A stretch of DNA of 64,000 bases. Origin: an uncultured Candidatus Saccharibacteria bacterium. Lineage in GTDB: Bacteria > Patescibacteriota > Minisyncoccia > 2-02-FULL-40-12 > GWA2-44-9. A model generated the notes under the pieces. That model was not told the origin of the DNA, made no database searches, and saw only the letters and a list, made by a program, of their open reading frames with translations. Within the stretch, counting starts at the first letter, position 1, and each line of letters starts with the position of its first letter. The position numbers and the translations under genes were made by a program. Shown in pieces: positions 19,472 through 59,565 of the stretch. The stretch spans positions 200,022 through 264,021 of the forward strand of contig CAZENF010000001.1 in the NCBI GenBank assembly GCA_964513645.1. The letters are read 5' to 3'.

Positions 19472-19600
19472 GATCCGTCATTTAAAAGATGCTGACCCAT
19501 ATTACAGCGCCTTAGGAACTAAATCAAATCATGTTTGACGAACCAATTTTTTGATAGTATAATCTGTCCAGTTATTTTTACAAAAAGGATATATCAATTC

Positions 19601-22155: not shown

Positions 22156-22626
22156 GCCGCGTATTTTTTTTATGATCGCACTCGTTGATATCGGAAATTC
22201 TCGATGGAAAATTTCTAAAGGCACATCCCACCTCTTTGAAAGGCCCCGCCGTTTTTCTATGTCACCATCATCATTAACAGCCCAAACATCCGGTTTAAAA
22301 TATAAGAATATCTCTTCGATTGGAAGGAGCCAGTGCTCACCTTTTTTAGAAGGATTTGAAAAGAACGAATAATCTACCGCTCTCATGGCATCAACCACCC
22401 TTAAGCGCAGATCCTGACCCAGGATAGGGAGCTGAGGGTTTTTATTATTTCTGATATCCTCATCTGTGCCTACGGCAACAACAAGGATATCGCCTAAACT
22501 TTTACAATTCTCAAGAAAAATGACATGGCCGGCATGAAATAAGTCAAAAGTCCCGGAACAAAAAACTATTTTTTTATCCGGACGCTTTTCCCTGAGTTTT
22601 GAAAGATCGTCATAACAAATGACCAT
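22147..22626 (-). CDS. Stand-alone cytidylyltransferase-like nucleotidyltransferase (second paralog)
   Basis: 159 aa; KKIVFCSGTFDLFHAGHVIFLE, collinear with 7409..7906. Confidence 0.75.
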   Translation of the reverse strand: MVICYDDLSKLREKRPDKKIVFCSGTFDLFHAGHVIFLENCKSLGDILVVAVGTDEDIRNNKNPQLPILGQDLRLRVVDAMRAVDYSFFSNPSKKGEHWLLPIEEIFLYFKPDVWAVNDDGDIEKRRGLSKRWDVPLEIFHREFPISTSAIIKKIRGLM

Positions 22627-28366: not shown

Positions 28367-29176
28367 ATGAAAACTAAAAAAACGATCAACTCACTTAAAA
28401 ATAACTATCAAAAAGATGGTCATGTGCTATTGAAGAATTTCTTAGATCCAAACGACGTTAAAGGTTTTAAAGATATCCTGATCGATCTTATAAATTACCA
28501 TCTCCGCAAAGAGGGAATAAAATCCAACGACCCGGTCAATGATGGCTTGATAAAATTGGACCGCAAGAACCACAAAGCGATCGTCGCGATCTATGAAACC
28601 TTAAGAAATTCGGATGCGCTTTGTCGAATAGTTTATAACCAAAAATTATTGTCAGCGGTAAAGGAAATCCTCGGTCTGTCACCGGACCAGGCGGTTTATC
28701 TGGCTGGCCATTCCTGCCGGATCGACCCGCCCCGGGATGAAAGATTTACATATAAATGGCACCAGCAGTCTTATTATTCTATCCGTGAAGCGGCGGAGGT
28801 TCAGTTATGGACCCCGATGATTGCCAGAAATACCAAAGAAAAAGGCACCTTAAGCATCTTGCTCAAATCTCACAAAAAAGAACTGTCGCATCATCTCGAA
28901 AGAAATCCGGGCGGCCATGAACAAATGTTCATACCTGATGAAACTGTTAAAGGAATGTTCGTCGAGAAATTTGTAGAAATAGATCCAGGCGATGTTATTT
29001 TATTCCACCCTTATATGATCCACCGGAGCAATCATAACTCAAGCAAACAGGTCCGATATTCCATGATCGCATCCTACGCCAACCCTTTTGATAAAAGATT
29101 TAAGCTCGGACTATCAAAGGAGGATATCGAAGATATCGCCACTCATAACAAAAAAAGGGCCATCGTAAAGAAATAG
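28367..29176 (+). CDS. PhyH-family Fe(II)/2-oxoglutarate-dependent oxygenase-like protein
   Basis: 269 aa; DGHVLLKNFL N-terminus, WHQQSY and HPYMIHRSNHN His motifs in PhyH-like arrangement. Confidence 0.55.
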   Translation: MKTKKTINSLKNNYQKDGHVLLKNFLDPNDVKGFKDILIDLINYHLRKEGIKSNDPVNDGLIKLDRKNHKAIVAIYETLRNSDALCRIVYNQKLLSAVKEILGLSPDQAVYLAGHSCRIDPPRDERFTYKWHQQSYYSIREAAEVQLWTPMIARNTKEKGTLSILLKSHKKELSHHLERNPGGHEQMFIPDETVKGMFVEKFVEIDPGDVILFHPYMIHRSNHNSSKQVRYSMIASYANPFDKRFKLGLSKEDIEDIATHNKKRAIVKK

Positions 29177-37199: not shown

Positions 37200-38765
37200 A
37201 TGAAAAAGCGTATAATCGCCCGTCTTGACATAAAAGGACCTAACGTCATCAAGGGCGTACAATTTGAATGTCTTAGAGTAATGGGAAAACCAGCCGATTT
37301 GGCTCAAAAATATTACGAACAAGGAGCGGATGAAATAATCTATTTGGACACTGTTGCCAGTCTCTACCGGCGAAATAATATTTTAAATATCGTCAAAGAA
37401 GCATCCCAGAATATTTTTATCCCTTTCATTGCGGGTGGAGGTGTAAGAACCTTGGAGGATATCCGTTCTCTTCTGGCCGCTGGTGCCGAAAAAGTTGCGA
37501 TCAATACCGCCGCCACTAAAAATCCAGAACTCATCCGACAAGCCGCAAAAAGATTTGGCTCTCAATGTATTGTGCTTTCCATCGAAGCTAAACTTATCTC
37601 GCCCGGCAAATGGGAAGCTTATACGGACAATGGCAGACAACGAACCGGACTTGATGTTGTTAACTGGGCCAAACACGGTGAAAAACTCGGGGCCGGAGAA
37701 ATCTTGCTTACTTCAGTGGATATGGACGGGACAGAAAGAGGTTTAGACCTTGAACTTATCCGGGCTGTAACCGAATCTGTTTCTATCCCAGTTATTGCGT
37801 CAGGCGGCATCGGTTCAGTTGAAGATATTTCTGAATGTCTGAAAGGGACAAAAACTGATGCAGTAGCCACAGCAAGTATTCTTCATTACAACAAATCAGA
37901 TATTCCGGCGATAAAAAAAGAACTGATTAAAAACAGAATCGAGGTCAGGCCTGTGACGGATCTAAAGGACCGAAAAAACCAGAATACCAAATACGACAGC
38001 AAAAATTACAACAAACACACTCTGAAACATTTAAGAGGAGTCATCGGCTCTTCAGTCGACCGAATAGATCAGAAACAAAATATCCGGACACTCGAAAAGG
38101 ATTATCCTAAAGGGACGGCTGACATCGGCATAATTGATTACAAAATAAACAATGTAATGAGCGTGGTGAGGGCTTTCCAGAAAATAGGTCAAAAAATTTC
38201 TATTATCGAAAAACCTTCCGAACTTCGCCAAGTAAAAGCACTGGTCCTGCCCGGAGTGGGATCATTCGGAGACGGCATGAAAGCATTGAACGGATCAAAA
38301 TTCGTTGAACCTTTGAGACAGCTCGCTAAACAAGGCGTGCCTGTCTTGGGCATATGTCTCGGAATGCAGATGCTTTTTTCGGAAAGCCAGGAATTCGGCA
38401 AACATAAGGGCCTGGGTCTCGTTCCCGGAAAAGTAATCCCCTTCAAGCCCGTCGGCCAGGTCAGGTTGAACGATTATAAACTTCCTCATATCGGCTGGAA
38501 TAAAACTACCGCCACATCTCGAAAGACATCTGCTCTTATGTCGGGCATCAATGATTCCGACGTATATTTTGTACATTCCTTTTACCCCAAGCCGGAAAAT
38601 AAAGACATTGTTATTGGTACAACAGAATACGGAGACCAGAAATTCTGCGCTGTATTCCAAAAAGACAACATCATGGGCGCACAATTTCACCCTGAAAAAA
38701 GCGGAGAAGTGGGGTTGACCCTTTTAAGAAATTTCTGTAAAATAATTTCTGTTAAAAATAATTAG
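37200..38765 (+). CDS. Fused imidazole-glycerol-phosphate-synthase-like protein: HisF-type cyclase domain (N-terminal) plus HisH-type class I glutamine amidotransferase domain (C-terminal); WbuZ/WbuY-like
   Basis: 521 aa. N-terminal IIARLDIKG...GADEIIYLD...IAGGGVRT...SIPVIASGGIG follows the HisF pattern. C-terminal VLPGVGSFGDG...GICLGMQMLF...VHSFY...QFHPEKS gives the GATase Cys-His-Glu triad. A roughly 60-aa linker joins the two. Confidence 0.85.
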   Translation: MKKRIIARLDIKGPNVIKGVQFECLRVMGKPADLAQKYYEQGADEIIYLDTVASLYRRNNILNIVKEASQNIFIPFIAGGGVRTLEDIRSLLAAGAEKVAINTAATKNPELIRQAAKRFGSQCIVLSIEAKLISPGKWEAYTDNGRQRTGLDVVNWAKHGEKLGAGEILLTSVDMDGTERGLDLELIRAVTESVSIPVIASGGIGSVEDISECLKGTKTDAVATASILHYNKSDIPAIKKELIKNRIEVRPVTDLKDRKNQNTKYDSKNYNKHTLKHLRGVIGSSVDRIDQKQNIRTLEKDYPKGTADIGIIDYKINNVMSVVRAFQKIGQKISIIEKPSELRQVKALVLPGVGSFGDGMKALNGSKFVEPLRQLAKQGVPVLGICLGMQMLFSESQEFGKHKGLGLVPGKVIPFKPVGQVRLNDYKLPHIGWNKTTATSRKTSALMSGINDSDVYFVHSFYPKPENKDIVIGTTEYGDQKFCAVFQKDNIMGAQFHPEKSGEVGLTLLRNFCKIISVKNN

Positions 38766-38775
38766 CCCGTCCTCA

Positions 38776-40053
38776 ATGGATATAAAATTAAAATTTCCAT
38801 CTCTCAAAATAGACGAGAAAAAGTACAAAAATTACCCGTTTAAAACGGTTGACCGTCAGTTGGCGATATTGCCGAAAAAAGTTCAGTTCTGTGCAAAATG
38901 CATCATGTCAAATCAAAGGCCAAGAACCGATTTTGATTATGAAGGAGTTTGCAACGCCTGCCGGTATGCCGAACAAAAATTCGGCGGCAAGATCGACTGG
39001 GGAAAAAGAGAAAAAGAACTTGTCAGACTTCTGGATAAATACCGCTCTAAGGACGGCAGCTGGGATGTCGTTGTTCCGGGCAGCGCAGGCAAGGACAGCA
39101 GTTTGGTCACGGACCAGCTCAAAAAATACGGCATGCACCCGTTAGCTGTAACCTGGGCGCCATTCATATATACCGATATCGGCTGGCAGAATTACTTCAA
39201 TATGATCCAGGCCGGATTCGACGGTATTCTGGCTTGGCCCAACGGAATTTTGCACCGCAAACTGGCTAGGGTTGCTTTTGAATTAAAAGGCGACCCGTGG
39301 GAACCTTTCACCTTCGGTCAGAAGGCCTATGCTTTCCAGATCGCGGCCAAATTCAAGATCCCTCTGATGTTCTACGGTGAGAACGGAGAGGTGGAATACG
39401 GAGGTTCCTTCAAGAACGCAAACAAACCTTATGAGTCGCCGGATGACTGGGATGAACTGTACTTTAAAGGCGCGGGCATAGATGTCCTCTTACAGGAAGG
39501 ATATAAGATGGGGATTTTCACCAAAGAAGAACTGGCCAACAATCAGTTCGAGCTTTACAAACCGCCTCCGAAAAAAGATATCAAAGACCTCGGACTTCAG
39601 ATGCATTGGTGGTCATATTACAAACTTTGGGTCCCGCAGGAGAATTTTTACTATGCGGCAAAAAATACAGGATTTGAAGCAAGTCCGACCCGCACCGAAG
39701 GCACTTATACCAAATCTTTCAGTATTGATGACCGTCTCGACCCGTTTCACTGGTATCTGGCTTACGTTAAATTTGGTTACGGCCGGGCAACCCGTGAAGC
39801 ATGCAGTGATATAAGATGCGGCCACATAACCCGAGAAGAGGGCGTAGCTTTGGCCCAACGGTACGACCACGAATTCCCAAAAACATATTTCCACGAATTT
39901 TTGGCTTATCTCGATATAAGTGAAAAACATTTCTGGGAGATTCTTGAGAAATACCGTTCTCCGCGTGTGTGGACCAAAGAAAACAATAAATGGAAGCGTA
40001 AAATAATAGTTTCCAATAAAAGCGTTTATGGCGAAAAACCCAAACACGAATAA
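38776..40053 (+). CDS. N-acetyl sugar amidotransferase (WbpG/PseA/LfnA family, PP-loop ATP pyrophosphatase)
   Basis: 425 aa; N-terminal zinc-ribbon CAKC...CNAC and PP-loop VVPGSAGKDSS (SGGKDS-type). Confidence 0.85.
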   Translation: MDIKLKFPSLKIDEKKYKNYPFKTVDRQLAILPKKVQFCAKCIMSNQRPRTDFDYEGVCNACRYAEQKFGGKIDWGKREKELVRLLDKYRSKDGSWDVVVPGSAGKDSSLVTDQLKKYGMHPLAVTWAPFIYTDIGWQNYFNMIQAGFDGILAWPNGILHRKLARVAFELKGDPWEPFTFGQKAYAFQIAAKFKIPLMFYGENGEVEYGGSFKNANKPYESPDDWDELYFKGAGIDVLLQEGYKMGIFTKEELANNQFELYKPPPKKDIKDLGLQMHWWSYYKLWVPQENFYYAAKNTGFEASPTRTEGTYTKSFSIDDRLDPFHWYLAYVKFGYGRATREACSDIRCGHITREEGVALAQRYDHEFPKTYFHEFLAYLDISEKHFWEILEKYRSPRVWTKENNKWKRKIIVSNKSVYGEKPKHE

Positions 40054-40762
40054 AAACTTGGCGATAATTCCGGCCCGTTCAGGTTCAAAAGGCATACCCG
40101 GAAAAAATATTAAACAATTCTGCGGCAAGCCCCTTATCGCTCACACGATAGACCAGGCAAAGAAAAGCAGAATTTTTGACCGGATATTGGTTGATACCGA
40201 CAGTGCCAAGATATCCTCGATCGCCCGTAAATATGGAGCCGAAACCCCTTTCTTAAGACCGGCCGAACTGGCCGGAGACAAAGCCCAGGTCACAGATGCA
40301 GTTCTGCTTTTGCTTGAACGCCTTAAGAGTTCAGAAAATTACGCTCCTGATGTAATTACTCTCCTTCAGACCACTTCTCCTCTCCGCGAAGTATCCGATA
40401 TTTTGAACTGCGCAAAACTTATCGCCGATCCGAAGGTCCGGTCGCTCTGCACGATCTGCGAGACACATCACCGTCTTTATCATTTATCTTCTGAAGGAAA
40501 GCTCATCCTGGTTAATAGGCCAAATCATGACAATCAAAACCGTCAGGCCTGGCCTGAATGCTATATCCTGAACGGCTGCATGGTTTACATGGTCCGCACC
40601 GGGCATTTTATAGAAACACGTAAATTCGTCGACGAAAATACCTATGGTGTTACTTGCGATAAATGGCGTTCGGTAGATCTCGATAATCCGGCAGACTGGG
40701 TATTGGCCGAAACACTTTATAAGAATAAAAGCAAAATCAATGCCAAACTTAAAAAAATATAA
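40028..40762 (+). CDS. Acylneuraminate (CMP-nonulosonic acid) cytidylyltransferase, NeuA/LegF/PseF family
   Basis: LAIIPARSGSKGIPGKN, the canonical CMP-NeuAc synthetase N-terminus. The ATG at 40028 overlaps the upstream gene by 26 nt. A TTG at 40058 is an alternative start. Confidence 0.85.
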   Translation: MAKNPNTNKNLAIIPARSGSKGIPGKNIKQFCGKPLIAHTIDQAKKSRIFDRILVDTDSAKISSIARKYGAETPFLRPAELAGDKAQVTDAVLLLLERLKSSENYAPDVITLLQTTSPLREVSDILNCAKLIADPKVRSLCTICETHHRLYHLSSEGKLILVNRPNHDNQNRQAWPECYILNGCMVYMVRTGHFIETRKFVDENTYGVTCDKWRSVDLDNPADWVLAETLYKNKSKINAKLKKI

Positions 40763-41774
40763 ATTTTTCCAGATCGGACTCGGTTCAATGGGCAAGAGAA
40801 GGATCCGCAACCTCATTTATCACGGTATTCTACCGGAACAGATAATAGGTTTTGATGTGCGGCCCGACCGGATAGCCGAAGCGGTAAAATTGCATAAAAT
40901 AATTCCAGTGAAAAGTTTCAAAGAAGGAATAAATAAATTCCGTCCGGATGTATTTATCATTTCAACCCCGCCCAATACTCACTGGGGATATTTCCTGACG
41001 GCCGCCCGCCTGAAGAAACACTTTTTTGTCGAGCATCCGACAACTGATAAAGGGTACGCGGAACTTTCCCGGCTTATGGATGGAACTTTTGTGGGTGTAC
41101 CGTCATCAACTTTGCAATTCAACTCGGCAGTAAGAGAGGCGAAAAAACAGCTCGAAAATAACGCCATCGGAAAAATATTGTCCTTTCAATATCATTTGGG
41201 CCAATATCTTCCAGACTGGCATCCTTGGGAGGATTTTAGGAACGTATACTTTTCTAAAAAGATAACCGGCGCCTGCCGGGAAATGTTCGCCTTCGAACTG
41301 GTCTGGCTGACCTATGCTCTTAATCTTCCCGAGATACATAAAATATCCGGCGTAAACAAGAAACTGTCGGACCTCAAAATGGCGGCGGATGATTTTTACT
41401 CTTATATCGCCGAATTCAAGAACGGAGTTATGGGTACAGTGGTTATCGACCTTCTTTCCAGAACGCCATTCAGAACTTTGCGGATTATCGGCACAGAAGG
41501 TGTACTTGATTGGGAATGGCAAAAATACGAAATGAGAATATTCAACATCAAAGACAAGAAAACCAAAATAATCAATTTTAAACCCGGTCACCGGGAAAAA
41601 CACTATATCGCCACCGAAGATATGTACGAAGAAGAGATAGGAAATTTTTTAGATGCGATAATGGGTAAGAAAAAATATAAATTTAGCTTTAAAGATAATC
41701 AAAAACACCTGAAAGCTCTGCTTGCACTCGAAAAAAGTTCTAAGACAGGAAAAAACATAGTTATAAAATATTAA
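40740..41774 (+). CDS. NAD(P)-binding Rossmann oxidoreductase (Gfo/Idh/MocA-like)
   Basis: 344 aa; FFQIGLGSMGKRRIRNL N-terminal dinucleotide-binding motif. Confidence 0.5.
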   Translation: MPNLKKYKFFQIGLGSMGKRRIRNLIYHGILPEQIIGFDVRPDRIAEAVKLHKIIPVKSFKEGINKFRPDVFIISTPPNTHWGYFLTAARLKKHFFVEHPTTDKGYAELSRLMDGTFVGVPSSTLQFNSAVREAKKQLENNAIGKILSFQYHLGQYLPDWHPWEDFRNVYFSKKITGACREMFAFELVWLTYALNLPEIHKISGVNKKLSDLKMAADDFYSYIAEFKNGVMGTVVIDLLSRTPFRTLRIIGTEGVLDWEWQKYEMRIFNIKDKKTKIINFKPGHREKHYIATEDMYEEEIGNFLDAIMGKKKYKFSFKDNQKHLKALLALEKSSKTGKNIVIKY

Positions 41775-42836
41775 ATGCCCAAAAACCTTAAAATTGGCAA
41801 CCATATTATCGGACCTCGCGAGCCGGTTTTTATCATTGCCGAGGCCGGAGTAAACCATAACGGACGCCTTGACCTTGCCCTGAAGCTGATAGACGCCGCC
41901 GCCGATGCGGGAGCAGATGCGGTCAAATTCCAGACATTTAAAGCGGAGCAGGTCACGATTGGCAGTGGTGAAATGGCCGATTATCAAAAAAGAAATATAG
42001 GCAAAACAATGTCCCAAATAGAGATGGTCCGCGGATTGGAAATTAAAGACGCTTGGTACCGTGCCCTCTTACGACATTGTAACAAGAAAAATATAATTTT
42101 TATGTCCGCTCCTCATGGCCACACCGTAAGCGCGGATCTTCTCAAAAAACTAAGACTTAAAGTTTACAAGATAGCTTCCGGCGACCTGATCAACCGTCCC
42201 CTTTTGGAACATGTTGCGCACTTTGATAAGCCGATGATAATTTCAAGCGGCATGGCTGATATGGCCGAAGTTAAAGAAGCTGTCGCCTGGGTTAAAAAGG
42301 CAGATAACGACAAAGTGGTGGTCCTTCATTGCACAACAAACTATCCATGCCCGGCTGAAGAAGTTAACTTGGCCGCAATGCAGACAATAATGAAACAACT
42401 TCCTGGGATTCCCGTCGGTTATTCCGACCACACCCGAGACAATCAGGCGAGTCTGATGGCGGTAACCCTCGGAGCGTGTGTCATAGAAAAACATCTGACT
42501 CTGGATAAAAATTTACCAGGACCTGATCATAAAGGCTCGCTCGAACCCGAAGAATTTAAAGCATTTGTGAAAGCGCTCCGAAACGTTTCAGTAATTTTAG
42601 GCAGTCCCGACAAAAAACCCAATAAAAGCGAACTTGAAACAATGAGAATAGTCCGCAAAAGCATTGTAACCACTGCCGCTATCAGAAAGGGTGAAAAATT
42701 AACGGAAAAAAATCTTGGCATCAAGCGTCCGGGAAACGGTATTCATCCGAAATACTACCACTCTCTGCTTGGCAAGAAGGCCAATAGAGATATTGCAAAC
42801 GACGTTCTGTTGGTTAAACAAGATATAAATGAGTAA
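41775..42836 (+). CDS. N-acetylneuraminate-synthase-family enzyme (NeuB/LegI/PseI; nonulosonic acid synthase) with C-terminal SAF domain
   Basis: 353 aa; FIIAEAGVNHNG...AGADAVKFQTF, TIM-barrel aldolase motifs of NeuB. Confidence 0.9.
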   Translation: MPKNLKIGNHIIGPREPVFIIAEAGVNHNGRLDLALKLIDAAADAGADAVKFQTFKAEQVTIGSGEMADYQKRNIGKTMSQIEMVRGLEIKDAWYRALLRHCNKKNIIFMSAPHGHTVSADLLKKLRLKVYKIASGDLINRPLLEHVAHFDKPMIISSGMADMAEVKEAVAWVKKADNDKVVVLHCTTNYPCPAEEVNLAAMQTIMKQLPGIPVGYSDHTRDNQASLMAVTLGACVIEKHLTLDKNLPGPDHKGSLEPEEFKAFVKALRNVSVILGSPDKKPNKSELETMRIVRKSIVTTAAIRKGEKLTEKNLGIKRPGNGIHPKYYHSLLGKKANRDIANDVLLVKQDINE

Positions 42837-43947
42837 CTTGAGGAAAAAATTGCTTTTCGTAACCGGTACCCGCGCCGAATATGGCTTGGCCAGAGCTACG
42901 CTTTTAGAATTGGCAAAGCTTAACTCCATAGATTTGAGGACTTTGGCCACCGGTATGCACACTTTAAAAAAATATGGCCTGACCCTGAATGAGATCAAAA
43001 AAGACATTAAAATTAACTGTATTGTGCCGATAAAAGAATCGGACGACATGATAACGGCTTTGACAAAAGAGATCAATGGTATTCAAGGATACGTTCAAAA
43101 AGAAAAAATTGACACAATAATCATTATCGGAGACCGGGACGAAGCATTTGCCGCGGCAACGGTCGGAGTACATTTGGGTATTCCTGTGATTCATGTGTCC
43201 GGCGGAGATGTTTCAGGGCCTTCCGTCGACCATTACTTACGCAATGCCATTACCGTTTTTTCTAAGCTCCACCTTGTTCAAACCGAACAGGCCGCCAAAA
43301 ACGTGATACGCCTGGGAGCAGATCCGAAAACAGTTCATGTCGTCGGTTCGATGGGTCTCCACGGATTAAACGGAAAAAATTTAAAAAACCGGAACGAGAT
43401 AGCCAGAGGAATCGGGCTTGATGCAAAAATGCCTTGGTATCTTATCGCCTATCATCCGACCATTTTCAGCAAAACAGGATTTCAAGAACAGATAGAACCG
43501 GTTCTTTCAGCCCTTAAAGACTTGGGTGAAAAAAGTGAAAAGATAATAATATATCCGAATTCTGATATGGGTTCGGATGTCTTCATAAAAAACGTTGAGA
43601 AACTCAGGAAAAATTCGCGCTATCACATCTTCAGAAACCTTGGCCGGGAATCATTTTTAGCCGCCCTTTATCACAGCGAAGCAATGATAGGCAACTCGAG
43701 CGCCGGGCTTTTTGAAGCCGGTTTCCTCAAAAAACCCTTCATAAATATCGGTGAAAGACAGGCCGGACGCGAGCAGGGACCAAATGTTATGAATGTCGGA
43801 TATAAAGCCGGGTCAATTACAAAAGCCGTCAAAAATTCTTCGTCTGCCAAATTCAAAACCAAGCTTGCTAATTCCCTTTCCCTCTATCAAGGTGGCGATG
43901 TGGCCGGCAAGATAGCCGATATAATTGAAAAATTCCTTCATGAATAA
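42829..43947 (+). CDS. UDP/GDP-N-acetylglucosamine 2-epimerase (hydrolysing), NeuC/LegG-like
   Basis: 372 aa; LLFVTGTRAEYGLARA, GDRDEAFAAA and HVSGGDVSG, typical of hydrolysing 2-epimerases. Confidence 0.85.
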   Translation: MSNLRKKLLFVTGTRAEYGLARATLLELAKLNSIDLRTLATGMHTLKKYGLTLNEIKKDIKINCIVPIKESDDMITALTKEINGIQGYVQKEKIDTIIIIGDRDEAFAAATVGVHLGIPVIHVSGGDVSGPSVDHYLRNAITVFSKLHLVQTEQAAKNVIRLGADPKTVHVVGSMGLHGLNGKNLKNRNEIARGIGLDAKMPWYLIAYHPTIFSKTGFQEQIEPVLSALKDLGEKSEKIIIYPNSDMGSDVFIKNVEKLRKNSRYHIFRNLGRESFLAALYHSEAMIGNSSAGLFEAGFLKKPFINIGERQAGREQGPNVMNVGYKAGSITKAVKNSSSAKFKTKLANSLSLYQGGDVAGKIADIIEKFLHE

Positions 43948-45616
43948 ATTTCCAAAAATAAAATTTGAAGACAATCAGATACATTCGACTTACAGCGACG
44001 GCCAAAGAACATTGGAAGAAATATTTGAATACAACCATTATCATGACAAGCTTGATATAACTCTGACCGATCATGTCGACAAGAATACGGATTGGTTCGA
44101 TAAGTATGTGGAAAATATAAAAAAGCTCAGAAAAAAATACCCTTCATTCTCGGCCAAGATAGGATGTGAAGTTAAGATCTTGGACGACGGGACACTGAAT
44201 ACAACAGCCGATATACTCAAAAAGGCCGAAGTCGTTATCGGCAGCGTTCATAATTTCAAAAACATTAAAACCCTAAGTGCAGATGAGTTGGTCAAGGAAG
44301 AATACCGATTAACAAAGGTCTTGGCGGAAAACAAAAAAATAGACATCCTCGGACACCCGTTCAGTATGGCCAAGAGGTTCTTTAATGCCGAACCACCTTT
44401 AAAGTATATGAGGGATATCTACGAAATCTGCGTTAAGAGCGGGATAAAGTTCGAATATAACAAGAAAAATTCACCAGAAAATGTCAAAAAGTTCATACTG
44501 GAGAAAATAGCCGAAGGAAAGATAGATACTTTTTCTTTCGGGAGCGATATGCATGCCGCTCTTTCTGAAATCGGCAATTCTGCTTTTGATATTTCTCCGG
44601 CCGTTAATGTTCTGGTTACCGGCGCGGGAGCCGGAGTCGGCCAGAGTATTATAAAATCTTTGAAATTATCCAATCTGAAGATACGGATAATCAGCGCCGA
44701 CAATAGCCATTTGGCCGCCGGGTTATACAGAAGTGACGCCGCCTATCTTATCCCCAAATACGACGAGAAGGATTATATTCCACGGATAATAGAAATCTGT
44801 AAAAAAGAAAGGGTAAATGTGGTCCTCATCGGAACGGATGTAGAACTTGGAATAATTGCTAAAAATAAAAAATATATCGAATCGGGAACAGGAGCATATG
44901 CCGCAGTAAGTCACCCGGAAACAGTGGCGATCGCGGATGATAAATGGAAAACCGCCGAGTTTCTGAAAAAGAACGGTTTCCCATACCCTCGCTCCTGGTC
45001 AGGCCCAAATGAAAAAGCGTTAGAAAAACTTAAATACCCGGTAATAGTAAAGCCCAGAATCGGCGCACGTTCTATCGGATTCAAGATAATAAATACAAGA
45101 AAAGAACTTAAGGCCGAACTGTCAGCTTCTCCAAATCTTATCGTACAGGAACTCCTTTCGGGTGAAAACAAAGAATACACCTGCGGAACCCTATTCTTAG
45201 GTGGTAAAAATTACGGGGTTGTTCCTGCACAGCGTTGGCTCCGGAACGGCGATACTTACAAAGCTTATTTCAGACACGACAAAAAACTGGAAAAATTCAT
45301 TTCTTCTGTCGGCAAAAAATTAAAAATAGACGGTCCGTGCAATTTCCAATTAAGAAAGACCCTCCGCGGGCCGGTGATATTCGAAATAAATGCCCGTTTT
45401 TCCGGCACTTCCGGCGCGGCAAGTTTTCTTGGATTTAACGGCGCAAATGCTCTTATCCAGCATAAGATCTTTGGCCGCAGGATAACCGGTCTTGATTTTA
45501 AAGAGGCGCGGATGTTCCGGTATTGGAACGAGGTTTTCGCTGAAAATTCGAATACGGAATCCTTGGCTAAAAACCGACGGCACGATGAAATTAATTCCGA
45601 GATAAATATTTTCTAA
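43925..45616 (+). CDS. Two-domain fusion: N-terminal PHP-type (histidinol-phosphatase-like) metal-dependent phosphoesterase plus C-terminal ATP-grasp ligase
   Basis: 563 aa. PHP motifs IHSTYSDG, ITLTDHVD, GCEV and IGSVHNF. ATP-grasp part YPVIVKPRIGARSIGF, LIVQELLSG and FEINARFSG. Confidence 0.65.
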   Translation: MKNSFMNKFPKIKFEDNQIHSTYSDGQRTLEEIFEYNHYHDKLDITLTDHVDKNTDWFDKYVENIKKLRKKYPSFSAKIGCEVKILDDGTLNTTADILKKAEVVIGSVHNFKNIKTLSADELVKEEYRLTKVLAENKKIDILGHPFSMAKRFFNAEPPLKYMRDIYEICVKSGIKFEYNKKNSPENVKKFILEKIAEGKIDTFSFGSDMHAALSEIGNSAFDISPAVNVLVTGAGAGVGQSIIKSLKLSNLKIRIISADNSHLAAGLYRSDAAYLIPKYDEKDYIPRIIEICKKERVNVVLIGTDVELGIIAKNKKYIESGTGAYAAVSHPETVAIADDKWKTAEFLKKNGFPYPRSWSGPNEKALEKLKYPVIVKPRIGARSIGFKIINTRKELKAELSASPNLIVQELLSGENKEYTCGTLFLGGKNYGVVPAQRWLRNGDTYKAYFRHDKKLEKFISSVGKKLKIDGPCNFQLRKTLRGPVIFEINARFSGTSGAASFLGFNGANALIQHKIFGRRITGLDFKEARMFRYWNEVFAENSNTESLAKNRRHDEINSEINIF

Positions 45617-45619
45617 CCC

Positions 45620-46747
45620 ATGCCCAAGAAACATTACCCTGTCGCGAGACCATATATAACCAAGGACGAAGAACTCTCGGTTCTCGAGGTTTTGCGTTCG
45701 GGCAATTTAAGCTTAGGGCCGAAATACAGAGAATTCGAACAAAAATTCGCAAAAAAAATAGGCAGAAAATATGCCTGTACTGTTTCAAGCGGCACCGCCG
45801 GACTCCATTTGGCGATGCTCACCGCAAGAATAAAACCCGGAGATGAAGTCATAACCTCCCCGTTCTCGTTCGTTGCATCAGCCAATTCTATCCTCTATGT
45901 CGGAGCAAAGCCGGTATTTGTGGATATAGACCCGAAAACCTACAACATTAATCCTTCGAAGATCGAAACTGTCGTCACCAAAAAAACAAAAGCGATATTG
46001 GTTGTCCATATTTTCGGCCAGACATCGGATATGGAACAGATCCATAAAATAGCCAAAAAATATAATTTAAAAATAATCGAAGATGCTTGTGAATCCTTCG
46101 GCGCAACATACAAAGGAAAAAATGCCGGTACTTTCGGTGAATCGGCCGTTTTCGCATTTTACCCGAACAAACAAATGACCACAGGCGAGGGCGGAATGAT
46201 CGTTACGGATGATAAAAAAATCCATGACACTTGTTCGAGCTTAAAAAACCAAGGACGCTCGGATGATCTTCAATGGCTCGACCACAACCGTCTCGGCTAC
46301 AATTACCGGATGGATGAATTAAGTGCGGCTCTTGGCATAACCCAACTTTCCAAGATAGACTATTTACTCAATGAACGGGTTAAGATAGCCGCTCTCTACA
46401 CAAAATATCTTTCTCCCCATTCCAACCTTATCCAAGTACCTTTAACCGATAAGAACAATAAACATAGCTGGTTTGTCTACGTGGTTACGATAAAGGACAA
46501 AAATATCAAAAGAGATGAACTGGTCCTGGCGCTTGCAAAAGAAGGAATAAACACAAAACCCTATCTTCCCTCCATCCATTTATTTAGTTTTTACAAAGAT
46601 AAGTTCGGATTCAAGAAAGGCGACTTTCCCGTATCGGAAAAAGTCAGTAATTCGTCCTTAGCTTTACCACTTTATATAGGGTTGAAAGAAGCGGACATTA
46701 AATATATAGTAGGGGGGCTAATAAATGCTCTAAATAGACATGCTTAA
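45620..46747 (+). CDS. DegT/DnrJ/EryC1 family PLP-dependent sugar aminotransferase (PseC/LegC/PglE-like)
   Basis: 375 aa; ...VSSGTAGLHLA... and FAFYPNKQMTTGEGG with the catalytic Lys present. Confidence 0.85.
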   Translation: MPKKHYPVARPYITKDEELSVLEVLRSGNLSLGPKYREFEQKFAKKIGRKYACTVSSGTAGLHLAMLTARIKPGDEVITSPFSFVASANSILYVGAKPVFVDIDPKTYNINPSKIETVVTKKTKAILVVHIFGQTSDMEQIHKIAKKYNLKIIEDACESFGATYKGKNAGTFGESAVFAFYPNKQMTTGEGGMIVTDDKKIHDTCSSLKNQGRSDDLQWLDHNRLGYNYRMDELSAALGITQLSKIDYLLNERVKIAALYTKYLSPHSNLIQVPLTDKNNKHSWFVYVVTIKDKNIKRDELVLALAKEGINTKPYLPSIHLFSFYKDKFGFKKGDFPVSEKVSNSSLALPLYIGLKEADIKYIVGGLINALNRHA

Positions 46748-47756
46748 CGATAAATTCAAAGAACAATTCTCTGATAAAGTTATCCTTGTTACCGGCGGAA
46801 CCGGCTCTATTGGCTCTGCCCTGATCAAGGAACTTTTGCCATATAACCCGAATCAGATAAGGGTTTTTTCACGCGACCAGAACAAACAGTACGATCTTAT
46901 GGAGGACCTCGGCGAACAGCCGAATGTCCGCTTTCTGGTCGGAGATATCAGGGACGAAAAACGCTTAAATCTGGCCATGGGCGGGGTTGATATCGTCTTC
47001 CATGCTGCAGCTCTAAAACACGTCCCCTCGTGTGAATATAACCCTTTTGAGGCGGTAAAGACCAATATCATCGGCTCCCAGAACGTGATCGAAGCCGCTC
47101 TGGCTCACGATGTCGAAAAAGTTATCGGGATATCGACAGATAAGGTCGTCCATCCGACCAGCGTTATGGGCACCTCCAAACTGATGATGGAAAAATTATT
47201 TTCAAGCGCATACCATTACATGGGTCAAAAGAGGACCAAATTCGCCTGCGTCCGTTTCGGAAATGTTGCCTGGTCAACCGCCTCGGTTCTGCCGATATGG
47301 AAAAAACAGATAGACAAACATGGCGAGATCCGCATTACCGACAAAAAAATGAGCCGCTTCCTGATGTCCAAAGAACAGGCCGCCCGATTAGTATTAAAAG
47401 CGGCCGAGATCACTAACGGCGATGAAATTTTCGTCCTGAAAATGTCAGCCATCAAACTCCCTCAGCTTGCCAAGATCTTCATAGAAAAATATGCTCCCGA
47501 TAAAAAAGTAAAGATAAAAATTATCGGCAACCGTGGCGGCGAAAAGATACATGAAGACCTTTTTTCAAGTTCGGACACAGAACAACGGCTGTACGAGAAC
47601 CAGGAAATGTTCATTTTGGTCCCAAGTATGAATCAATATGATGAGGGCGGCACGAACAAGCGGGAATATCCGGGATTCAAAAAAATAAAGAAAGAAAAAT
47701 TAAAACTCTCTTCTCACAATAATTTGAGCGTCTCGGAGGTCAAAAAAATAATATAG
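46740..47756 (+). CDS. UDP/GDP-N-acetylglucosamine 4,6-dehydratase (PseB/LegB/FlaA1/CapD-like)
   Basis: 338 aa; ILVTGGTGSIGSAL, FSRDQNKQ, GDIRD and HAAALKHVP. Confidence 0.85.
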   Translation: MLNDKFKEQFSDKVILVTGGTGSIGSALIKELLPYNPNQIRVFSRDQNKQYDLMEDLGEQPNVRFLVGDIRDEKRLNLAMGGVDIVFHAAALKHVPSCEYNPFEAVKTNIIGSQNVIEAALAHDVEKVIGISTDKVVHPTSVMGTSKLMMEKLFSSAYHYMGQKRTKFACVRFGNVAWSTASVLPIWKKQIDKHGEIRITDKKMSRFLMSKEQAARLVLKAAEITNGDEIFVLKMSAIKLPQLAKIFIEKYAPDKKVKIKIIGNRGGEKIHEDLFSSSDTEQRLYENQEMFILVPSMNQYDEGGTNKREYPGFKKIKKEKLKLSSHNNLSVSEVKKII

Positions 47757-48728
47757 ATGAAAAATATTTTAATAATCGGCGCCGGACAGATCGGAAGCCG
47801 TCACCTTCAGGCCCTGAAAAAAGTTAATTTTCACCTTAATATTCTGGTCATTGACCCTTCTTCGGCCTCTCTTGAACAGGCAAAGGAAAGATACGATGCG
47901 TTTGACGGAGGAAAATTTGAACACAAAATTGAATATCAGACATCCGTTCCTTCTGGCAGACATATCTTTGATATTGCCATCGTTGCATCAAGTTCTGATG
48001 TCCGGAGAAAAATCACCGAAATACTTCTTAAAAAACATGGGGTAAAATACCTGATACTTGAAAAGATACTTTTCCAAAAAAGATCCGACTACGAACAGAT
48101 CAGTAAATTATTGAAAAATACAAAAACCAGATGCTGGGTCAATTGCCCGATGCGAATGATGCCTTTCTATGGTGGGATTAAAAAACACAAGCCCGAAAAG
48201 ATAATTTCTTATTCTGTCTCCGGCGGAAATTACGGCCTGGTAACCAGCACGATCCACCACCTCGACCACATTGTTTACCTGACCGGCGATGAAAGTTTTC
48301 AAATATCTTCAGAATTGCTGGACAAGGACCCGGTACCGAGCAAGCGTAAAGGATTCTTAGAAATAACTGGAACGTTAACCGCAAAATTTTCAAAGGGAAC
48401 AATAGCCGTGTTCAGTTCTTATAAAACTCCGGGCTTACCCTTGATAATTAAAATAGACACGGAGCACTTCCGGTATATTATCAAAGAGTCTGAAGGTGAG
48501 GTCTTGATATTTTCTTCGGATAAAAATGAATGGAAAAACGAAAAAATAGACATCCCCTACCAAAGCCAGATGACAACCGGGCTTGTTGAAGAACTTCTTA
48601 AGACCGGCACCTGCCGCCTGGTCAGTTACGATGTTTCCGCCGAAACTCATGTTCAATTTTTAGAACCGTTAAGACGCTTCTTAAACATTGCGGCAAAGAA
48701 AAAATATAATTATTACCCTTTCACATAA
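47757..48728 (+). CDS. NAD(P)-binding oxidoreductase (Gfo/Idh/MocA-like)
   Basis: 323 aa; ILIIGAGQIGSRH Rossmann motif. Confidence 0.5.
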   Translation: MKNILIIGAGQIGSRHLQALKKVNFHLNILVIDPSSASLEQAKERYDAFDGGKFEHKIEYQTSVPSGRHIFDIAIVASSSDVRRKITEILLKKHGVKYLILEKILFQKRSDYEQISKLLKNTKTRCWVNCPMRMMPFYGGIKKHKPEKIISYSVSGGNYGLVTSTIHHLDHIVYLTGDESFQISSELLDKDPVPSKRKGFLEITGTLTAKFSKGTIAVFSSYKTPGLPLIIKIDTEHFRYIIKESEGEVLIFSSDKNEWKNEKIDIPYQSQMTTGLVEELLKTGTCRLVSYDVSAETHVQFLEPLRRFLNIAAKKKYNYYPFT

Positions 48729-49693
48729 TGAGCCAGAAATTTGAAAAAAATGAGATTTTATTGGTGGGGGCAGGTTATATGGCAACAGAGTACGCCAAGG
48801 TTTTGAAGGCCATGAGAATTAAATTTACTGTCATTGGAAATTCACAGGTTTCGGCTGAAAAGTTTGCTCTTGAAGCAGGAATTCAGCCGATAACCGGCGG
48901 CATAGAGAAATGGGTCAGAAATCAAAGTAAAATACCCTCATCAGCCATAATCGCCACAAACGTTGAGACCCTCGGCAAAATAACAAGATTACTCCTTAAA
49001 AAAGGTGTAAAAAATATTCTGCTTGAAAAGCCGGGCGGCTTAGAAATTAATAACATCAAAAAGACCGCCGGTCTTGCCCGTTCAAAAAACGCCGGTGTTT
49101 ATATTGCCTACAATCGAAGATTCTATGCTTCGACCGCAAAAGCCGGGGAAATAATAAAACAGGACGGCGGATTGTTATCGGTGGTGTTCGAATTTACGGA
49201 ATGGAGCAATCTGATAGAAAGGTCAGACAAATCTCCTTTAAAAATTAAAAAGCACTGGCTGACGGCAAATTCAAGCCATGTCATAGATCTTGCTTTTTAT
49301 GTCGCGGGCTGGCCCAAACTTATATCCTCCTATAAACTCGGGCGCCTTGCCTGGCATCCGTCAGGAGCAATTTTTGGCGGAGCGGGCATAACTGAGAAAA
49401 AGGCCGTTTTTTCTTATCACGCCAATTGGCAGTCGGCCGGCCGCTGGGGCATAGAATTTATGACCATTAAAAACCGCTTGATACTAAGGCCGCTTGAAAA
49501 ACTTTTTATTCAAAAAAGGGATTCGCTTGAGCTGAATCAGGTGGAGATCGATGACGAGCTTGATAAAAAATTCAAACCCGGACTGTACAAGCAGGTTGAA
49601 TCTTTTCTCGGCCCTAAAAACAACCTGGTTACCGTAAACGATCAACTTGAACATTACAAGATATTCGAATCTATCAATAAAGGTCTGAATTAA
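48728..49693 (+). CDS. Gfo/Idh/MocA family oxidoreductase
   Basis: 321 aa; LLVGAGYMATEYA and the EKP motif ILLEKPGGLE. Confidence 0.65.
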   Translation: MSQKFEKNEILLVGAGYMATEYAKVLKAMRIKFTVIGNSQVSAEKFALEAGIQPITGGIEKWVRNQSKIPSSAIIATNVETLGKITRLLLKKGVKNILLEKPGGLEINNIKKTAGLARSKNAGVYIAYNRRFYASTAKAGEIIKQDGGLLSVVFEFTEWSNLIERSDKSPLKIKKHWLTANSSHVIDLAFYVAGWPKLISSYKLGRLAWHPSGAIFGGAGITEKKAVFSYHANWQSAGRWGIEFMTIKNRLILRPLEKLFIQKRDSLELNQVEIDDELDKKFKPGLYKQVESFLGPKNNLVTVNDQLEHYKIFESINKGLN

Positions 49694-50577
49694 TGCTTAC
49701 CGAAAAAATAAAATACATACCCGGTTATATATACAGGAATCTGGCTCTGCCAAGGATTTTAACTTTTAAAAACAGAGAGGTCCTGTCACAAAACCTCGCT
49801 TTGAAAAATAAGATACAAGGCAGATGTTTTATACTTGGTAGCGGGCCATCTATTAACGAGATTGATATCAAACGTTTTGCCGATGAACAAACCTTTATGG
49901 TCAATACATTCTCCAAGCATGCCGATTTTAGCTCGCTCAAACATACGAATTATATAATCATTGATTCCGGACTTCCTTCGAAACCTTCATACGAGATGGT
50001 AACCGACGTATCGCGGAAGGCGGTCAAAAATACAAATATATTTTTTAACGTCAATGACAAAGAAGAGCTGGAAAAAAGCGGATTGTTTAAGAACCAAAAT
50101 ATCTATTATATATCCGCCCAAGGAATAATGAGTCGGTATTTTGATTTTAATATTAATATCGACCGGACGATCCCCGCCCCCAAGAACAGCGTCCTGCTCT
50201 GCATTATTATCGCGGTTTATATGGGTTTTAAAGAGATATATCTTTTGGGCTGCGAACACAATTTTTTGTCTTATGATTTCTGGACCCAGGACCACAAAGA
50301 ACAGGACAATCATTACGATTTCGGCCATTTTCAAAAAGAGAATTCGGAAGAAACCGAACCCAAAGGTTTTAAAATAGTGGATACCAAAAAAGTTAAATGG
50401 CAAAACAATATTTCGTACGAGAACAGCATCGCCCACGTCCTTCAATTGTTCAAAAGTTACAGATTTTTGTACGCCAAGATAAAAAAAGTTCATCCTGAAG
50501 TAAAAATATATAACGCAACGCCCAAAAGTTTTTTGGATGTTTTTCCGAGAATAAAATATGAAGATATCAAATTCTAA
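49693..50577 (+). CDS. GT42-family (CstII-like) nonulosonic-acid (sialic-acid-type) transferase
   Basis: 294 aa. FILGSGPSINEIDIKRF, FMVNTF, CIIIAVYMGFKEIYLLGCEHNF and HYDFGHF are collinear with CstII AGNGPSLKEIDYSRL, FRCNQF, AVAIALGYKEIYLSGIDFY and HYIGHS. Confidence 0.55.
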   Translation: MLTEKIKYIPGYIYRNLALPRILTFKNREVLSQNLALKNKIQGRCFILGSGPSINEIDIKRFADEQTFMVNTFSKHADFSSLKHTNYIIIDSGLPSKPSYEMVTDVSRKAVKNTNIFFNVNDKEELEKSGLFKNQNIYYISAQGIMSRYFDFNINIDRTIPAPKNSVLLCIIIAVYMGFKEIYLLGCEHNFLSYDFWTQDHKEQDNHYDFGHFQKENSEETEPKGFKIVDTKKVKWQNNISYENSIAHVLQLFKSYRFLYAKIKKVHPEVKIYNATPKSFLDVFPRIKYEDIKF

Positions 50578-57945: not shown

Positions 57946-58077
57946 GGCCCTTCTGCACCTCTGTGTTAAGGTTCTGATCCAAATTATTATACATTTAAAT
58001 CCAAAACTCGCAATATTGATGATTTTTAATAAATACGTAGGATAAAAGACAGTTCTTTGACCATTTTGAGGATGGCG

Positions 58078-59565
58078 ATGGAGACATGCCTGATCACTCC
58101 GCCATCCATTTTTCTTTTGGATGAGCGGGTATTTCCGACGATTGGCATTTTAAAAGTTGCCGCCGTACTTGAAAGATCCGGGGTTGATGTTAACCATATT
58201 GACTTGGCTGGGATCGAAAACTACAAACAAGTTATTTCTGACTATTGCCGAAATTTTCAAACTCAAATTTTCGGATTAACCGCTACCACTCCCCAGCTGC
58301 CAGCAACAGTAAAGATCCTAAAGAAGATCAGAGATACCAAACCATCAGCTAAGGTCATCCTTGGCGGTCCACACATTACTCTCGTAAATGCGGCTTATAA
58401 GCGTGAGAAAAAACTTAATTTTGAAGGCCGGGCCACCACTGCTTTTGAGCAGCTCTCAAATGATTTTGACGTTTTAGTCGCTGGTGACGGTGAAGAGGCA
58501 ATCTTTGAAGCCTTAAGAGATACGGCGCCCAAACTTATCGACGCCGATGTTCCTAAATCCGTTCTTTTCCTGACCAACAAAAAACTTACCGAAAACCCAT
58601 TTCCAGCCCGGCACATGATTGATCTGGACACCTACCATTACTATATTGACGGGGTTAGGGCGACAAGCATGATCGCCCAGCTCGGCTGCCCGTTTGAGTG
58701 CGGCTTCTGCGGTGGGAGAGCATCGCCATTTTTGAGGAAAGTCCGTACCCGGACCAGTGAAAACATCGTCGCCGAGATGCTTCATATTTATCAAACCTAT
58801 GGCATCCGCGGATTTATGATGTATGACGACGAACTGAACGTCAACAAGCAGGTCGTCAGTCTGATGAACATGATCGCCGACCTTCAAAAAAACCTCGGTA
58901 CAGAGTTCCGTCTCCGTGGTTTTATCAAAGCCGAACTTTTCACCGAAGAACAGGCCGAAGCAATGTACCGGGCGGGGTTCCGCTGGATACTCGTCGGATT
59001 TGAATCCGGCTCTCCGCGCATCCTTGAGAACATAAACAAAAAGGCAACCCAGGAAGACAACACGCGTTGTCTCGCCATAGCCCACAAACACGGCTTAAAA
59101 GTAAAAGCCCTGATGTCCATCGGCCACCCCGGAGAATCAAAAGATACTATCTTTGAAACCCGCGACTGGCTTCTGCGCGTTAAGCCGGATGACTTCGACG
59201 TTACCATCATCACCACTTATCCCGGAACACCGTACTATGATTACGCCATTCCCCATCCTGATAAGCCCGGAATTTGGGTTTATACCTACGAAAAGACCGG
59301 CGATAAACTTTACGGCATCGAGGTCGATTACCGGACCACCGCCGACTACTACAAAGGCGACCCTGAAGGCGGATATAAATCTTTCGTTTATACCGACCAT
59401 CTTTCTCCGGAAGAACTTGTTGAATTACGCAACAATGTCGAGCGTGATGTCAGACAAAAACTGAACATCCCGTTCAATCCTTCTGCTCCGGCAATGCGAT
59501 ACGAGCATTCAATGGGCCAAACCGGATTACCGCCAAATATCCTTCGAACAGGCAGAAAACAATAA
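58078..59565 (+). CDS. Cobalamin-binding (class B) radical SAM enzyme (third, divergent copy)
   Basis: [14 protein letters not shown] radical SAM motif and an N-terminal B12-binding-type region (VILGGPHIT). The ORF is open from TTG 58057, but GAGG plus ATG 58078 is the likely start. Confidence 0.75.

Follow-up and report, generated by a model that had tools for sequence, protein, structure and literature searches.

Legionaminic and pseudaminic acids (Leg and Pse) are canonically made by the LegB/C/H/G/I/F and PseB/C/H/G/I/F enzymes, which include an acetyl coenzyme A-dependent N-acetyltransferase (LegH or PseH), and the nonulosonate operon studied here raises the question of what performs that step where no such enzyme is encoded. 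The operon lies in a 64-kb stretch of contig CAZENF010000001.1 from an uncultured Candidatus Saccharibacteria bacterium (this whole stretch is referred to as the window). As in the canonical pathways, a dehydratase, an aminotransferase, a hydrolyzing epimerase, a synthase, and a CMP-transferase are all encoded in it, but LegH/PseH has no counterpart in the window and its place is occupied by a fusion of a PHP phosphoesterase domain to an ATP-grasp carboxylate-amine ligase domain. We propose that this fusion stands in for the LegH/PseH/PglD N-acetyltransferase step of a Leg/Pse-type pathway as a bifunctional enzyme, in which the ligase would join a phosphorylated acid to a UDP-4-amino sugar and the PHP domain would then dephosphorylate the product. 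We give this model, taken as a whole, a probability of roughly 0.6.

RESULTS

The fusion is a genuine, conserved two-domain enzyme

The fusion gene is one uninterrupted open reading frame (ORF) on the plus strand (43925..45616), encoding 563 amino acids (aa) when counted from a TTG codon. An ATG at 43940 is the likelier start and gives 558 aa with the same end at 45616, in line with the identical NCBI protein (P0001), which is equally long. This ATG and the stop codon of the preceding NeuC-type epimerase gene lie in an 8-nt overlap (cATGAATAA), the epimerase gene is translationally coupled to the fusion gene, and the gene for a DegT-family aminotransferase begins 3 nt past the fusion stop codon. 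The overlap on one side and the short gap on the other indicate that the fusion gene is translationally embedded in the operon. Both neighbors were identified by family models, in agreement with an earlier note on this DNA, which had described the gene as wedged between them and had quoted the motifs QIHSTYSDG, TDH, GCE, GSVH, VIVKP, QELL, and EINARFSG, all of which are found in the translation.

The AlphaFold2 model of the fusion protein is a two-domain structure of high confidence (pLDDT 93.3, pTM 0.91), and 77 full-length homologs with the same architecture were found at 35-72% identity. These belong mostly to the candidate phyla radiation (CPR)/Patescibacteria and to the Nanoarchaeota; the named ones are from Minisyncoccia, Gribaldobacteria, Peregrinibacteria, the "Patescibacteria group," and one nanoarchaeote. 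Together, the homologs and the confident two-domain model rule out a chance ORF or a frameshift artifact, the latter a possibility raised in the earlier note, and they demonstrate that PHP and ATP-grasp are joined in one genuine and conserved enzyme.

The operon block, again without an acetyltransferase, flanks fusion homologs in five other CPR contigs (L001, L002/3, L004/5, L095, and L096). A NeuC gene lies immediately 5' of the fusion gene in 6/6 CPR fusion loci (the window, L001, L002, L004, L095, and L096), and this adjacency is kept even where the remaining gene order is scrambled. In the nanoarchaeote, the fusion gene is directly 3' of a DegT gene.

Loci with the ligase lack a PglD-type acetyltransferase

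Essentially every ORF of the whole window was without a match to Hexapep, GNAT, or TIGR03570 acetyltransferase models, and a local PglD-type hidden Markov model (HMM) found no match in these 64 kb. The earlier claim that no PseH/LegH-type acetyltransferase is encoded in the operon therefore extends to the sequence just outside it, where a canonical enzyme might have been present. Likewise, none was found in the ~9-10 kb that flank the fusion on each side in loci L001-L007, L095, and L096. For a wider census scored with local HMMs, we combined 80 loci anchored on phosphoglycosyltransferase (PGT) genes, taken from one genome scan, with the other fetched loci. The genome-contig scan gave mostly PGT-only loci and none from Neisseria, and these loci were reused as the control set; the PglD/NeuD-type acetyltransferase seeds were validated as TIGR03570. 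A PglD/NeuD-type acetyltransferase was present in 46 of the 75 loci without the ligase and in 0 of the 18 loci with it (Fisher p 1e-6; 1e-5 with duplicate loci collapsed).

The ligase half and its family

The ATP-grasp half of the window protein matches PylC-like_N (PF21360; 60.5 bits versus a cut-off of 27), ATP-grasp_3 (PF02655; 48.9 versus 23.2), and NCBIfam NF009402 (318 versus 218). The ATP/Mg2+-binding residues and the three-domain fold are present, and K340, K376, E487, N489, and R491 are invariant in the alignment of 78 sequences. Stand-alone homologs of this half with 42% identity are located in bacillosamine-type modules. A chimeric PGT plus ATP-grasp query, used to reach PGT-ATP-grasp fusions and PglB2, retrieved dozens of such fusions, among which cluster P0352 (570 members) is the Neisseria meningitidis "protein Pglb2." An alignment of the window ligase domain with PglB2 covers 199 aa at 26% identity (E 3e-16), and the HMM of the clade that contains the window ligase gives PglB2 a score of 110 bits. 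This clade, clade A of a neighbor-joining tree, comprises the ligases linked to PHP, split PHP, and Metallophos phosphoesterases, while clade B comprises those linked to haloacid dehalogenase (HAD) hydrolases, including PglB2. Judged by sequence, the window ligase belongs with PglB2 at the level of the family, not as an ortholog. The PGT model PF02397 (Bac_transf) has no match in the window protein, and clade-A relatives fused to a PGT do exist (P0121 and P0125).

PglB2, an ATP-grasp/PGT protein of the Neisseria pilin glycan system, makes glyceramido-acetamido-trideoxyhexose (GATDH) instead of di-N-acetylbacillosamine (PMC11130364, PMC6959607, PMC10425976). It resembles the window system in having a homologous ATP-grasp of the same PylC-like_N/ATPgrasp_Ter architecture, in the DegT and 4,6-dehydratase genes alongside, in the replaced acetyltransferase, and in the paired phosphatase gene, and it acylates N4 of the hexose, the nitrogen that becomes N7 of a nonulosonate. 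The two systems differ in clade, in the PGT domain that the window enzyme is without, in the phosphatase (PHP fused N-terminally in the window, a separate downstream HAD for PglB2), and in the route of the product, which would go to NeuC and NeuB in the window and goes to undecaprenyl phosphate in the case of PglB2. A second, putative relative, Pyl of Bacillus cereus (UDP-yelosamine), is the only ATP-grasp enzyme known from biochemical proof to N-acylate a UDP-4-amino-4,6-dideoxy-HexNAc (Hwang 2014, cited in PMC8987622 and PMC11626204), with 2-oxoglutarate as the acid (PMC11626204). It adjoins an aminotransferase and a small PGT; it differs in that its acid is unphosphorylated and that the citing papers mention no phosphatase partner. 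The replacement of the bacillosamine acetyltransferase by an ATP-grasp enzyme is thus already known, and the window ligase is not a new enzyme class. The statement in the earlier note that the fusion was not recognized from characterized pathways is accurate for the fusion as such, which is uncharacterized, but not for its ligase family, given PglB2 and Pyl.

An ATP-grasp gene is required for a peptidylamido sugar in Clostridioides difficile (PMC5207246), and the Exiguobacterium "carbamoylphosphate synthase large subunit" of structural genomics (PDB 2pn1) lacks a PHP domain and has not been assigned a function. A search of E. coli genomes with an enterobacterial clade-A gene for a tie to a known O antigen gave no match. 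The Tannerella forsythia locus for Pse5Am7Gra carries PseH, and its paper does not mention a ligase or phosphatase, which makes it uninformative as a test case.

The homology to PglB2, the constant adjacency of DegT and 4,6-dehydratase genes, and the Pyl precedent support N-acylation of the 4-amino sugar, one of two acceptors offered in the earlier note. The other, the finished nonulosonate, fares less well. Late action of this kind would mean amidation of the C1 carboxylate in the manner of Cj1438 or reacylation of N7 at the CMP-sugar stage, and it has parallels in the Campylobacter acetamidino groups, for which modification at the CMP-sugar stage was proposed (PMC5378307), and in Cj1438 itself, which couples phospho-amines to a sugar carboxylate (PMC11800397). 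However, homologs with 42% identity occur in loci without nonulosonate genes, fused to PGTs that use UDP-sugars, and a pathway without an acetyltransferase would stall at the free 4-amine ahead of NeuC and NeuB. We consider late action very improbable.

Three unrelated phosphatase folds accompany the ligase

A phosphatase is fused or adjacent to the ligase in ~15/17 independent ligase loci, and the partners come from three unrelated superfamilies: PHP, Metallophos, and HAD. PHP is fused to the ligase in CPR and Nanoarchaeota. In Caldithrix (L010), where the order is small PGT, PHP, ATP-grasp, DegT, and PglF-like dehydratase, PHP is encoded by a separate gene (234 aa, 4-nt overlap) and is a specific homolog of the window N-terminal domain, with 32% identity. 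The same kind of layout is found in Pontibacter (L011) and in a metagenomic locus (L012), with a Metallophos phosphoesterase and a short-chain dehydrogenase/reductase (SDR) instead; the L012 ligase is joined to the PGT in one protein. In L094, a NeuC-PHP fusion (3718-5577; P0446) lies 3' of NeuB, and a clade-A ATP-grasp comes after it as a separate gene. The second-clade ligases of Ignavibacterium, Aminipila, and Bryobacterales are followed by a HAD hydrolase, and nine clusters (P0296, P0314, P0321, P0343, P0348, P0351, and P0356-P0358) are triple fusions of ~745-763 aa, with PGT at residues 1-200, ATP-grasp at 215-540, and HAD phosphatase at 550-746. On a meningococcal-type contig, a gene for a 226-aa HAD hydrolase (L093:3347-4027; motif FDLDDT) overlaps the 3' end of pglB2. 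This HAD groups in one subfamily with the other ligase-linked HADs, scoring 83 bits against their HMM, and the best NCBIfam match for all of them is TIGR02253. The gene co-inserted after pglB2 has been termed "ORF8" or conserved hypothetical (PMC11130364, PMC3338715). Among the 75 control loci without a ligase, the PHP and Metallophos types were found in none and the HAD type in one.

The association of three unrelated folds with one ligase family, in several cases by fusion, and their distribution outside acetyltransferase-type loci indicate that hydrolysis of a phosphate ester is part of the acylation step, and the same pattern argues against a role in sugar-nucleotide or lipid-carrier chemistry. 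These non-orthologous displacements and independent fusions show that the phosphatase step is integral to the ligase pathway. The suggestion in the earlier note that the PHP domain removes a phosphate from an intermediate is strengthened by the exchange of PHP for Metallophos or HAD beside the same ligase family, and the fusion of PHP either to the ligase or to NeuC fits an action between those two steps.

These counts also bear on whether the ligase might use an ordinary unphosphorylated acid, such as an amino acid or 2-oxoglutarate, with the phosphatase serving a separate end, for example driving the NeuC or PGT reaction forward by hydrolysis of UDP or UMP. The acid described for Pyl is of this type, N-alanyl and N-glycyl nonulosonates are known, and the HAD partners resemble pyrimidine 5'-nucleotidases weakly, at scores far below the cut-offs. 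A phosphatase that served NeuC or the PGT would, however, be expected in acetyltransferase-type loci, contrary to the control counts, and the phosphatase tracks the ligase both in loci with a PGT and no NeuC (L010-L012) and in the window, with NeuC and no PGT. We regard an unphosphorylated donor as decidedly unlikely. The earlier note had named an amino acid or another carboxylate as the donor; a carboxylate remains in our model, and a phosphorylated hydroxy acid of the glyceroyl type appears likelier than an amino acid.

The PHP half is a divergent but intact phosphoesterase domain

The earlier note had suggested a search with Pfam models for both domains. PF02655 matched, but PF02811 had no match in the window sequence at E<0.01; PF02811 does occur in homologs of the window protein. 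NCBIfam PHP models match the N-terminal half at 7e-13, as does the PolX model at 2.5e-11, and the window sequence matches the PHP domain of Thermus thermophilus PolX (PDB 3au2) at 5e-8. With a subfamily profile, matches were obtained to the PolX PHP domain (6e-22), Lactococcus lactis histidinol-phosphate phosphatase (1.4e-15), and YcdX (4e-15), and the domain has the PHP barrel fold. Its identity to the L. lactis and T. thermophilus histidinol-phosphate phosphatases, YcdX, and PolX PHP is below 25%, and unlike these phosphoesterases, it is joined to a ligase and set in a nucleotide-sugar pathway. Scans of this half with family models gave no specific match for CpsB-type tyrosine phosphatase or pAp phosphatase roles. 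A kinase/phosphatase pair in the style of ManNAc-6-P or Neu5Ac-9-P was ruled out by reasoning on the operon chemistry: the 4,6-dehydratase yields 6-deoxy sugars, hence 9-deoxy nonulosonates, which have no hydroxyl at that position to be phosphorylated. When the PHP domain alone was searched against 1.84 billion representatives, the matches comprised ~7 fusion clusters at 50% identity, ~100 stand-alone PHP proteins of 230-250 aa, the NeuC-PHP fusion P0446, and P0514, a fusion of PHP to an extended SDR that shares its subfamily with the SDRs adjoining the ligase.

The metal ligands are Q18, H20, D25, H50, E82, H109, H144, D208, and H210 (in the 563-aa numbering). In the alignment of 78 family members, all except position 18 are invariant; at that position, 43 sequences have H and 33 have Q. 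The earlier note had correctly read Q-I-H in place of H-x-H in motif I and had called it atypical, a label that does not hold; given its frequency in the family, Q-x-H is natural variation. That this glutamine and the failure of the Pfam PHP model mark a catalytically dead module, retained for structure or regulation, is the least credible of the alternatives considered here, and it was rejected on the conservation of the metal ligands. In addition, T. thermophilus PolX has the same Q-V-H (QVHSTYSDG), its PHP domain is an active 3'-5' exonuclease, and unrelated phosphatases of active type take the place of PHP in other loci.

DISCUSSION

Proposed reaction sequence

In the model that we favor, the dehydratase would convert UDP-GlcNAc to a 4-keto-6-deoxy sugar, from which the DegT enzyme, predicted to make the amine to be acylated, would produce UDP-2-acetamido-4-amino-2,4,6-trideoxyhexose. 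The ATP-grasp domain would activate a carboxylic acid as an acyl-phosphate and couple it to the 4-amino group. The acid would itself bear a phosphate ester and would most likely be 3- or 2-phosphoglycerate, as the glyceramido product in Neisseria suggests. The PHP domain, as a trinuclear-metal phosphomonoesterase, would then cleave the phosphate to leave an N-hydroxyacyl (N-glyceroyl-type) group. NeuC would remove UDP and epimerize C2 to yield the free hexose, NeuB would condense this with phosphoenolpyruvate (PEP) to form the nonulosonate, and the cytidylyltransferase would activate it. HisF-HisH and WbuX, the predicted machinery for turning an acetamido into an acetamidino group, would act on the 5-N-acetyl group, so that the end product would be a CMP-5-acetamidino-7-(hydroxyacyl)amido nonulosonate. 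Within this scheme, we infer the UDP-4-amino sugar as the substrate, ligation before dephosphorylation, and, above all, the derivation of the acyl group from phosphoglycerate.

The order of the two reactions could also be reversed, with PHP supplying a free hydroxy acid (for example, D-glycerate from 3-phosphoglycerate) that the ATP-grasp domain then ligates to form the same product. All of the co-occurrence and fusion data fit this order equally, and a dedicated supply would be sensible because free glycerate is not abundant. However, PHP is also joined to NeuC (L094) and to a nucleotide-sugar-type SDR (P0514), which suggests sugar-linked substrates. Furthermore, in the analogous Campylobacter jejuni pair Cj1438C/Cj1435, ATP-dependent amide ligation of a phosphorylated substrate is followed by HAD dephosphorylation (PMC11800397). 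The resemblance of this pair to our proposed logic, amide formation with a phosphorylated co-substrate and a dedicated phosphatase acting on the amide product, would be one of mechanism; its polarity is opposite (a sugar carboxylate and a phospho-amine), and it acts on the growing polysaccharide. We consider the reverse order unlikely.

A different donor is suggested by the reductases that accompany clade A. PEP or 3-phosphohydroxypyruvate could be ligated and, after PHP action, the 2-oxo group could be reduced by a GFO/IDH/MocA-type oxidoreductase (GFO), an aldo-keto reductase (AKR), or an SDR to give N-lactoyl or N-glyceroyl. A reductase does occur together with the clade-A ligase in most loci (AKR in L001, L004, and L096; SDR in L006, L008, L011, L012, and L013; adh_short in L002 and L094; GFO in the window). 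The SDR-PHP fusion P0514 fits such a route, as does a D-2-hydroxyacid dehydrogenase gene on a Nanoarchaeota contig (L006:4421-5356), ~4.6 kb upstream of the PHP-ATP-grasp gene, whose best match is phosphoglycerate dehydrogenase TIGR01327 at 231 bits, below the cut-off of 454. Oxidoreductases are, however, abundant in sugar loci anyway, the reductase families vary by locus, legionaminic acid clusters commonly include accessory GFO genes, and the glyceramido group of Neisseria needs just PglB2 plus the HAD. A keto or enol donor is therefore, in our judgment, quite unlikely.

Several observations weigh against the phosphoglycerate model. The loci were sampled opportunistically, and the controls were anchored on PGT genes, not on nonulosonate operons. 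Clade A has no characterized member and the window ligase is only 26% identical to PglB2 of clade B, so that acyl specificity may differ. The family also appears plastic, given the unphosphorylated acid used by Pyl. Clade-A ligases often have a reductase (AKR, SDR, or GFO) as a third partner, and in P0514 an SDR is even fused to PHP; the phosphoglycerate route needs no reductase. The sequence relatives of the PHP half include a nuclease domain, that of PolX, and genomes alone do not reveal the order of ligation and dephosphorylation. Finally, 2 of the ~17 independent ligase loci have no dedicated phosphatase adjoining the ligase. In one (L008/L009), the clade-A ATP-grasp (8001-9044) has SDR, DegT, and dehydratase genes nearby, and the sole candidate for a phosphatase, a HAD-nucleotidyltransferase fusion, is encoded four genes upstream; the other (L013) is a short contig with no phosphatase beside the ligase.

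Taken together, the phosphatase partnerships also suggest, more tentatively and at somewhat less than even odds, a general, so far unrecognized route in which a phospho-acid is ligated and then dephosphorylated to place N-hydroxyacyl (glyceroyl-type) groups on 4-amino-4,6-dideoxy-hexosamines and on N7 of nonulosonates, by means of one ATP-grasp family and three phosphatase folds.

Implications

N-acyl groups on bacillosamine and on pseudaminic and legionaminic acids shape antigenicity and immune evasion, and the enzymes that install the non-acetyl groups are largely unknown. Friedrich et al. called the genetic basis of the N-glyceroyl group in Tannerella Pse5Am7Gra "a major challenge" (PMC5378307). 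Our analysis offers a concrete enzyme pair for non-acetyl N-acyl transfer, an ATP-grasp ligase and a phosphatase, and suggests what the HAD gene accompanying meningococcal pglB2 is likely to do. In open-access full text, we found no description of the PHP fusion or of its use in a nonulosonate pathway, nor of a systematic phosphatase partnership, that of the HAD after pglB2 included, and a full-text search for "glyceramido" with "haloacid" returned no paper. If the general route is true, it would account for the "hypothetical" gene inherited together with pglB2 in Neisseria, and CPR bacteria and Nanoarchaeota would be expected to carry 5-acetamidino-7-glyceramido nonulosonates on their surfaces. 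The analysis also shows that the ultra-small CPR bacteria, as well as Nanoarchaeota, devote genes to decorated sialic-acid-like sugars. The fused enzyme would also be a compact tool for the chemo-enzymatic synthesis of N7-modified nonulosonates.

Operon genes and the surrounding glycan island

The features of the operon are listed in Table 1. The gene order is HisF-HisH, WbuX, CMP-transferase, GFO, NeuB, NeuC, fusion, DegT, dehydratase, two GFO genes, a weak Maf-like gene, and glycosyltransferases.

Table 1. Features of the nonulosonate operon (window coordinates)
Feature	Coordinates	Strand	Remarks
HisF-HisH fusion	37200-38765	+	His_biosynth + GATase
WbuX-type N-acetyl sugar amidotransferase	38776-40053	+	TIGR03573, 326.6 bits > 203.2
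CMP-nonulosonate cytidylyltransferase	40028..40762	+	PF02348, 87.7 bits; PseF 154 bits < 205.7 cut-off
GFO/IDH/MocA oxidoreductase	40740..41774	+	Inside operon
NeuB-type nonulosonate synthase	41775..42836	+	TIGR03569, 437.4 bits > 399.65
NeuC/LegG-type hydrolyzing UDP-HexNAc 2-epimerase	42829..43947	+	TIGR03568, 349.5 bits > 235.9
PHP-ATP-grasp fusion gene	43940..45616	+	558 aa from ATG; mechanical ORF from TTG 43925
PHP phosphoesterase domain	43970..44560	+	Residues ~11-207 of the 558-aa protein
ATP-grasp carboxylate-amine ligase domain	44603..45553	+	PylC-like N-domain + ATP-grasp_3
DegT-family sugar 4-aminotransferase, PseC/LegC-like	45620..46747	+	PF01041, 420 bits; PseC 330.8 < 423.5 and LegC family 290.4 < 420 (equivalog cut-offs)
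UDP-GlcNAc 4,6-dehydratase, Polysacc_synt_2, PseB/PglF-like	46740..47756	+	PF02719, 322.8 bits; PseB 313.9 < 407.75
Two GFO/IDH/MocA-type oxidoreductases	47757..49693	+	Directly 3' of dehydratase

The dehydratase, aminotransferase, and CMP-transferase all score below every equivalog cut-off, so that the nonulosonate may be of the Leg, the Pse, or another stereochemical series. The GFO between the cytidylyltransferase and NeuB genes is possibly a reductase partner or a Leg-pathway accessory. HisF and HisH, which supply ammonia to WbuX, form one 521-aa protein in the window, with HisF first; they are fused also in L002/L003, and HisF and HisH are separate genes in L001, L095, and L096. The 294-aa product of 49693-50577, which has a sub-threshold MptE-like/Maf match (25.9 bits versus a cut-off of 34.6), may be a nonulosonate transferase.

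In related CPR contigs (L002/L003:1-2378; L001:1-4287; L096:1-2097), either of two gene sets lies immediately ahead of the nonulosonate operon. The first consists of sulfate-activation genes and a sulfotransferase; the second comprises PEP mutase, thiamine pyrophosphate (TPP) decarboxylase, iron-dependent alcohol dehydrogenase (Fe-ADH), and a member of the sulfatase family, and it resembles a pathway for phosphonate decoration.

Three large genes of the B12-binding radical SAM type (15147-17222, 24610-26760, and 58057-59565) are spread across the glycan island of the window, and L002 and L004 have similar genes close to the fusion; a possible role for them is the C-methylation of sugars or acyl groups. 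The island also contains two split transketolase/E1-like pairs (8569-10573 and 19535-21315), along with genes for a GHMP kinase (5715-6698), a SIS-domain protein (965-1537), a PhyH dioxygenase (28367-29176), and a carbamoyltransferase (10673-12379). Two further small genes, both cytidylyltransferase-like, are encoded on the minus strand (7409-7906 and 22147-22626). The transketolase pairs and other island genes suggest further unusual sugar pathways.

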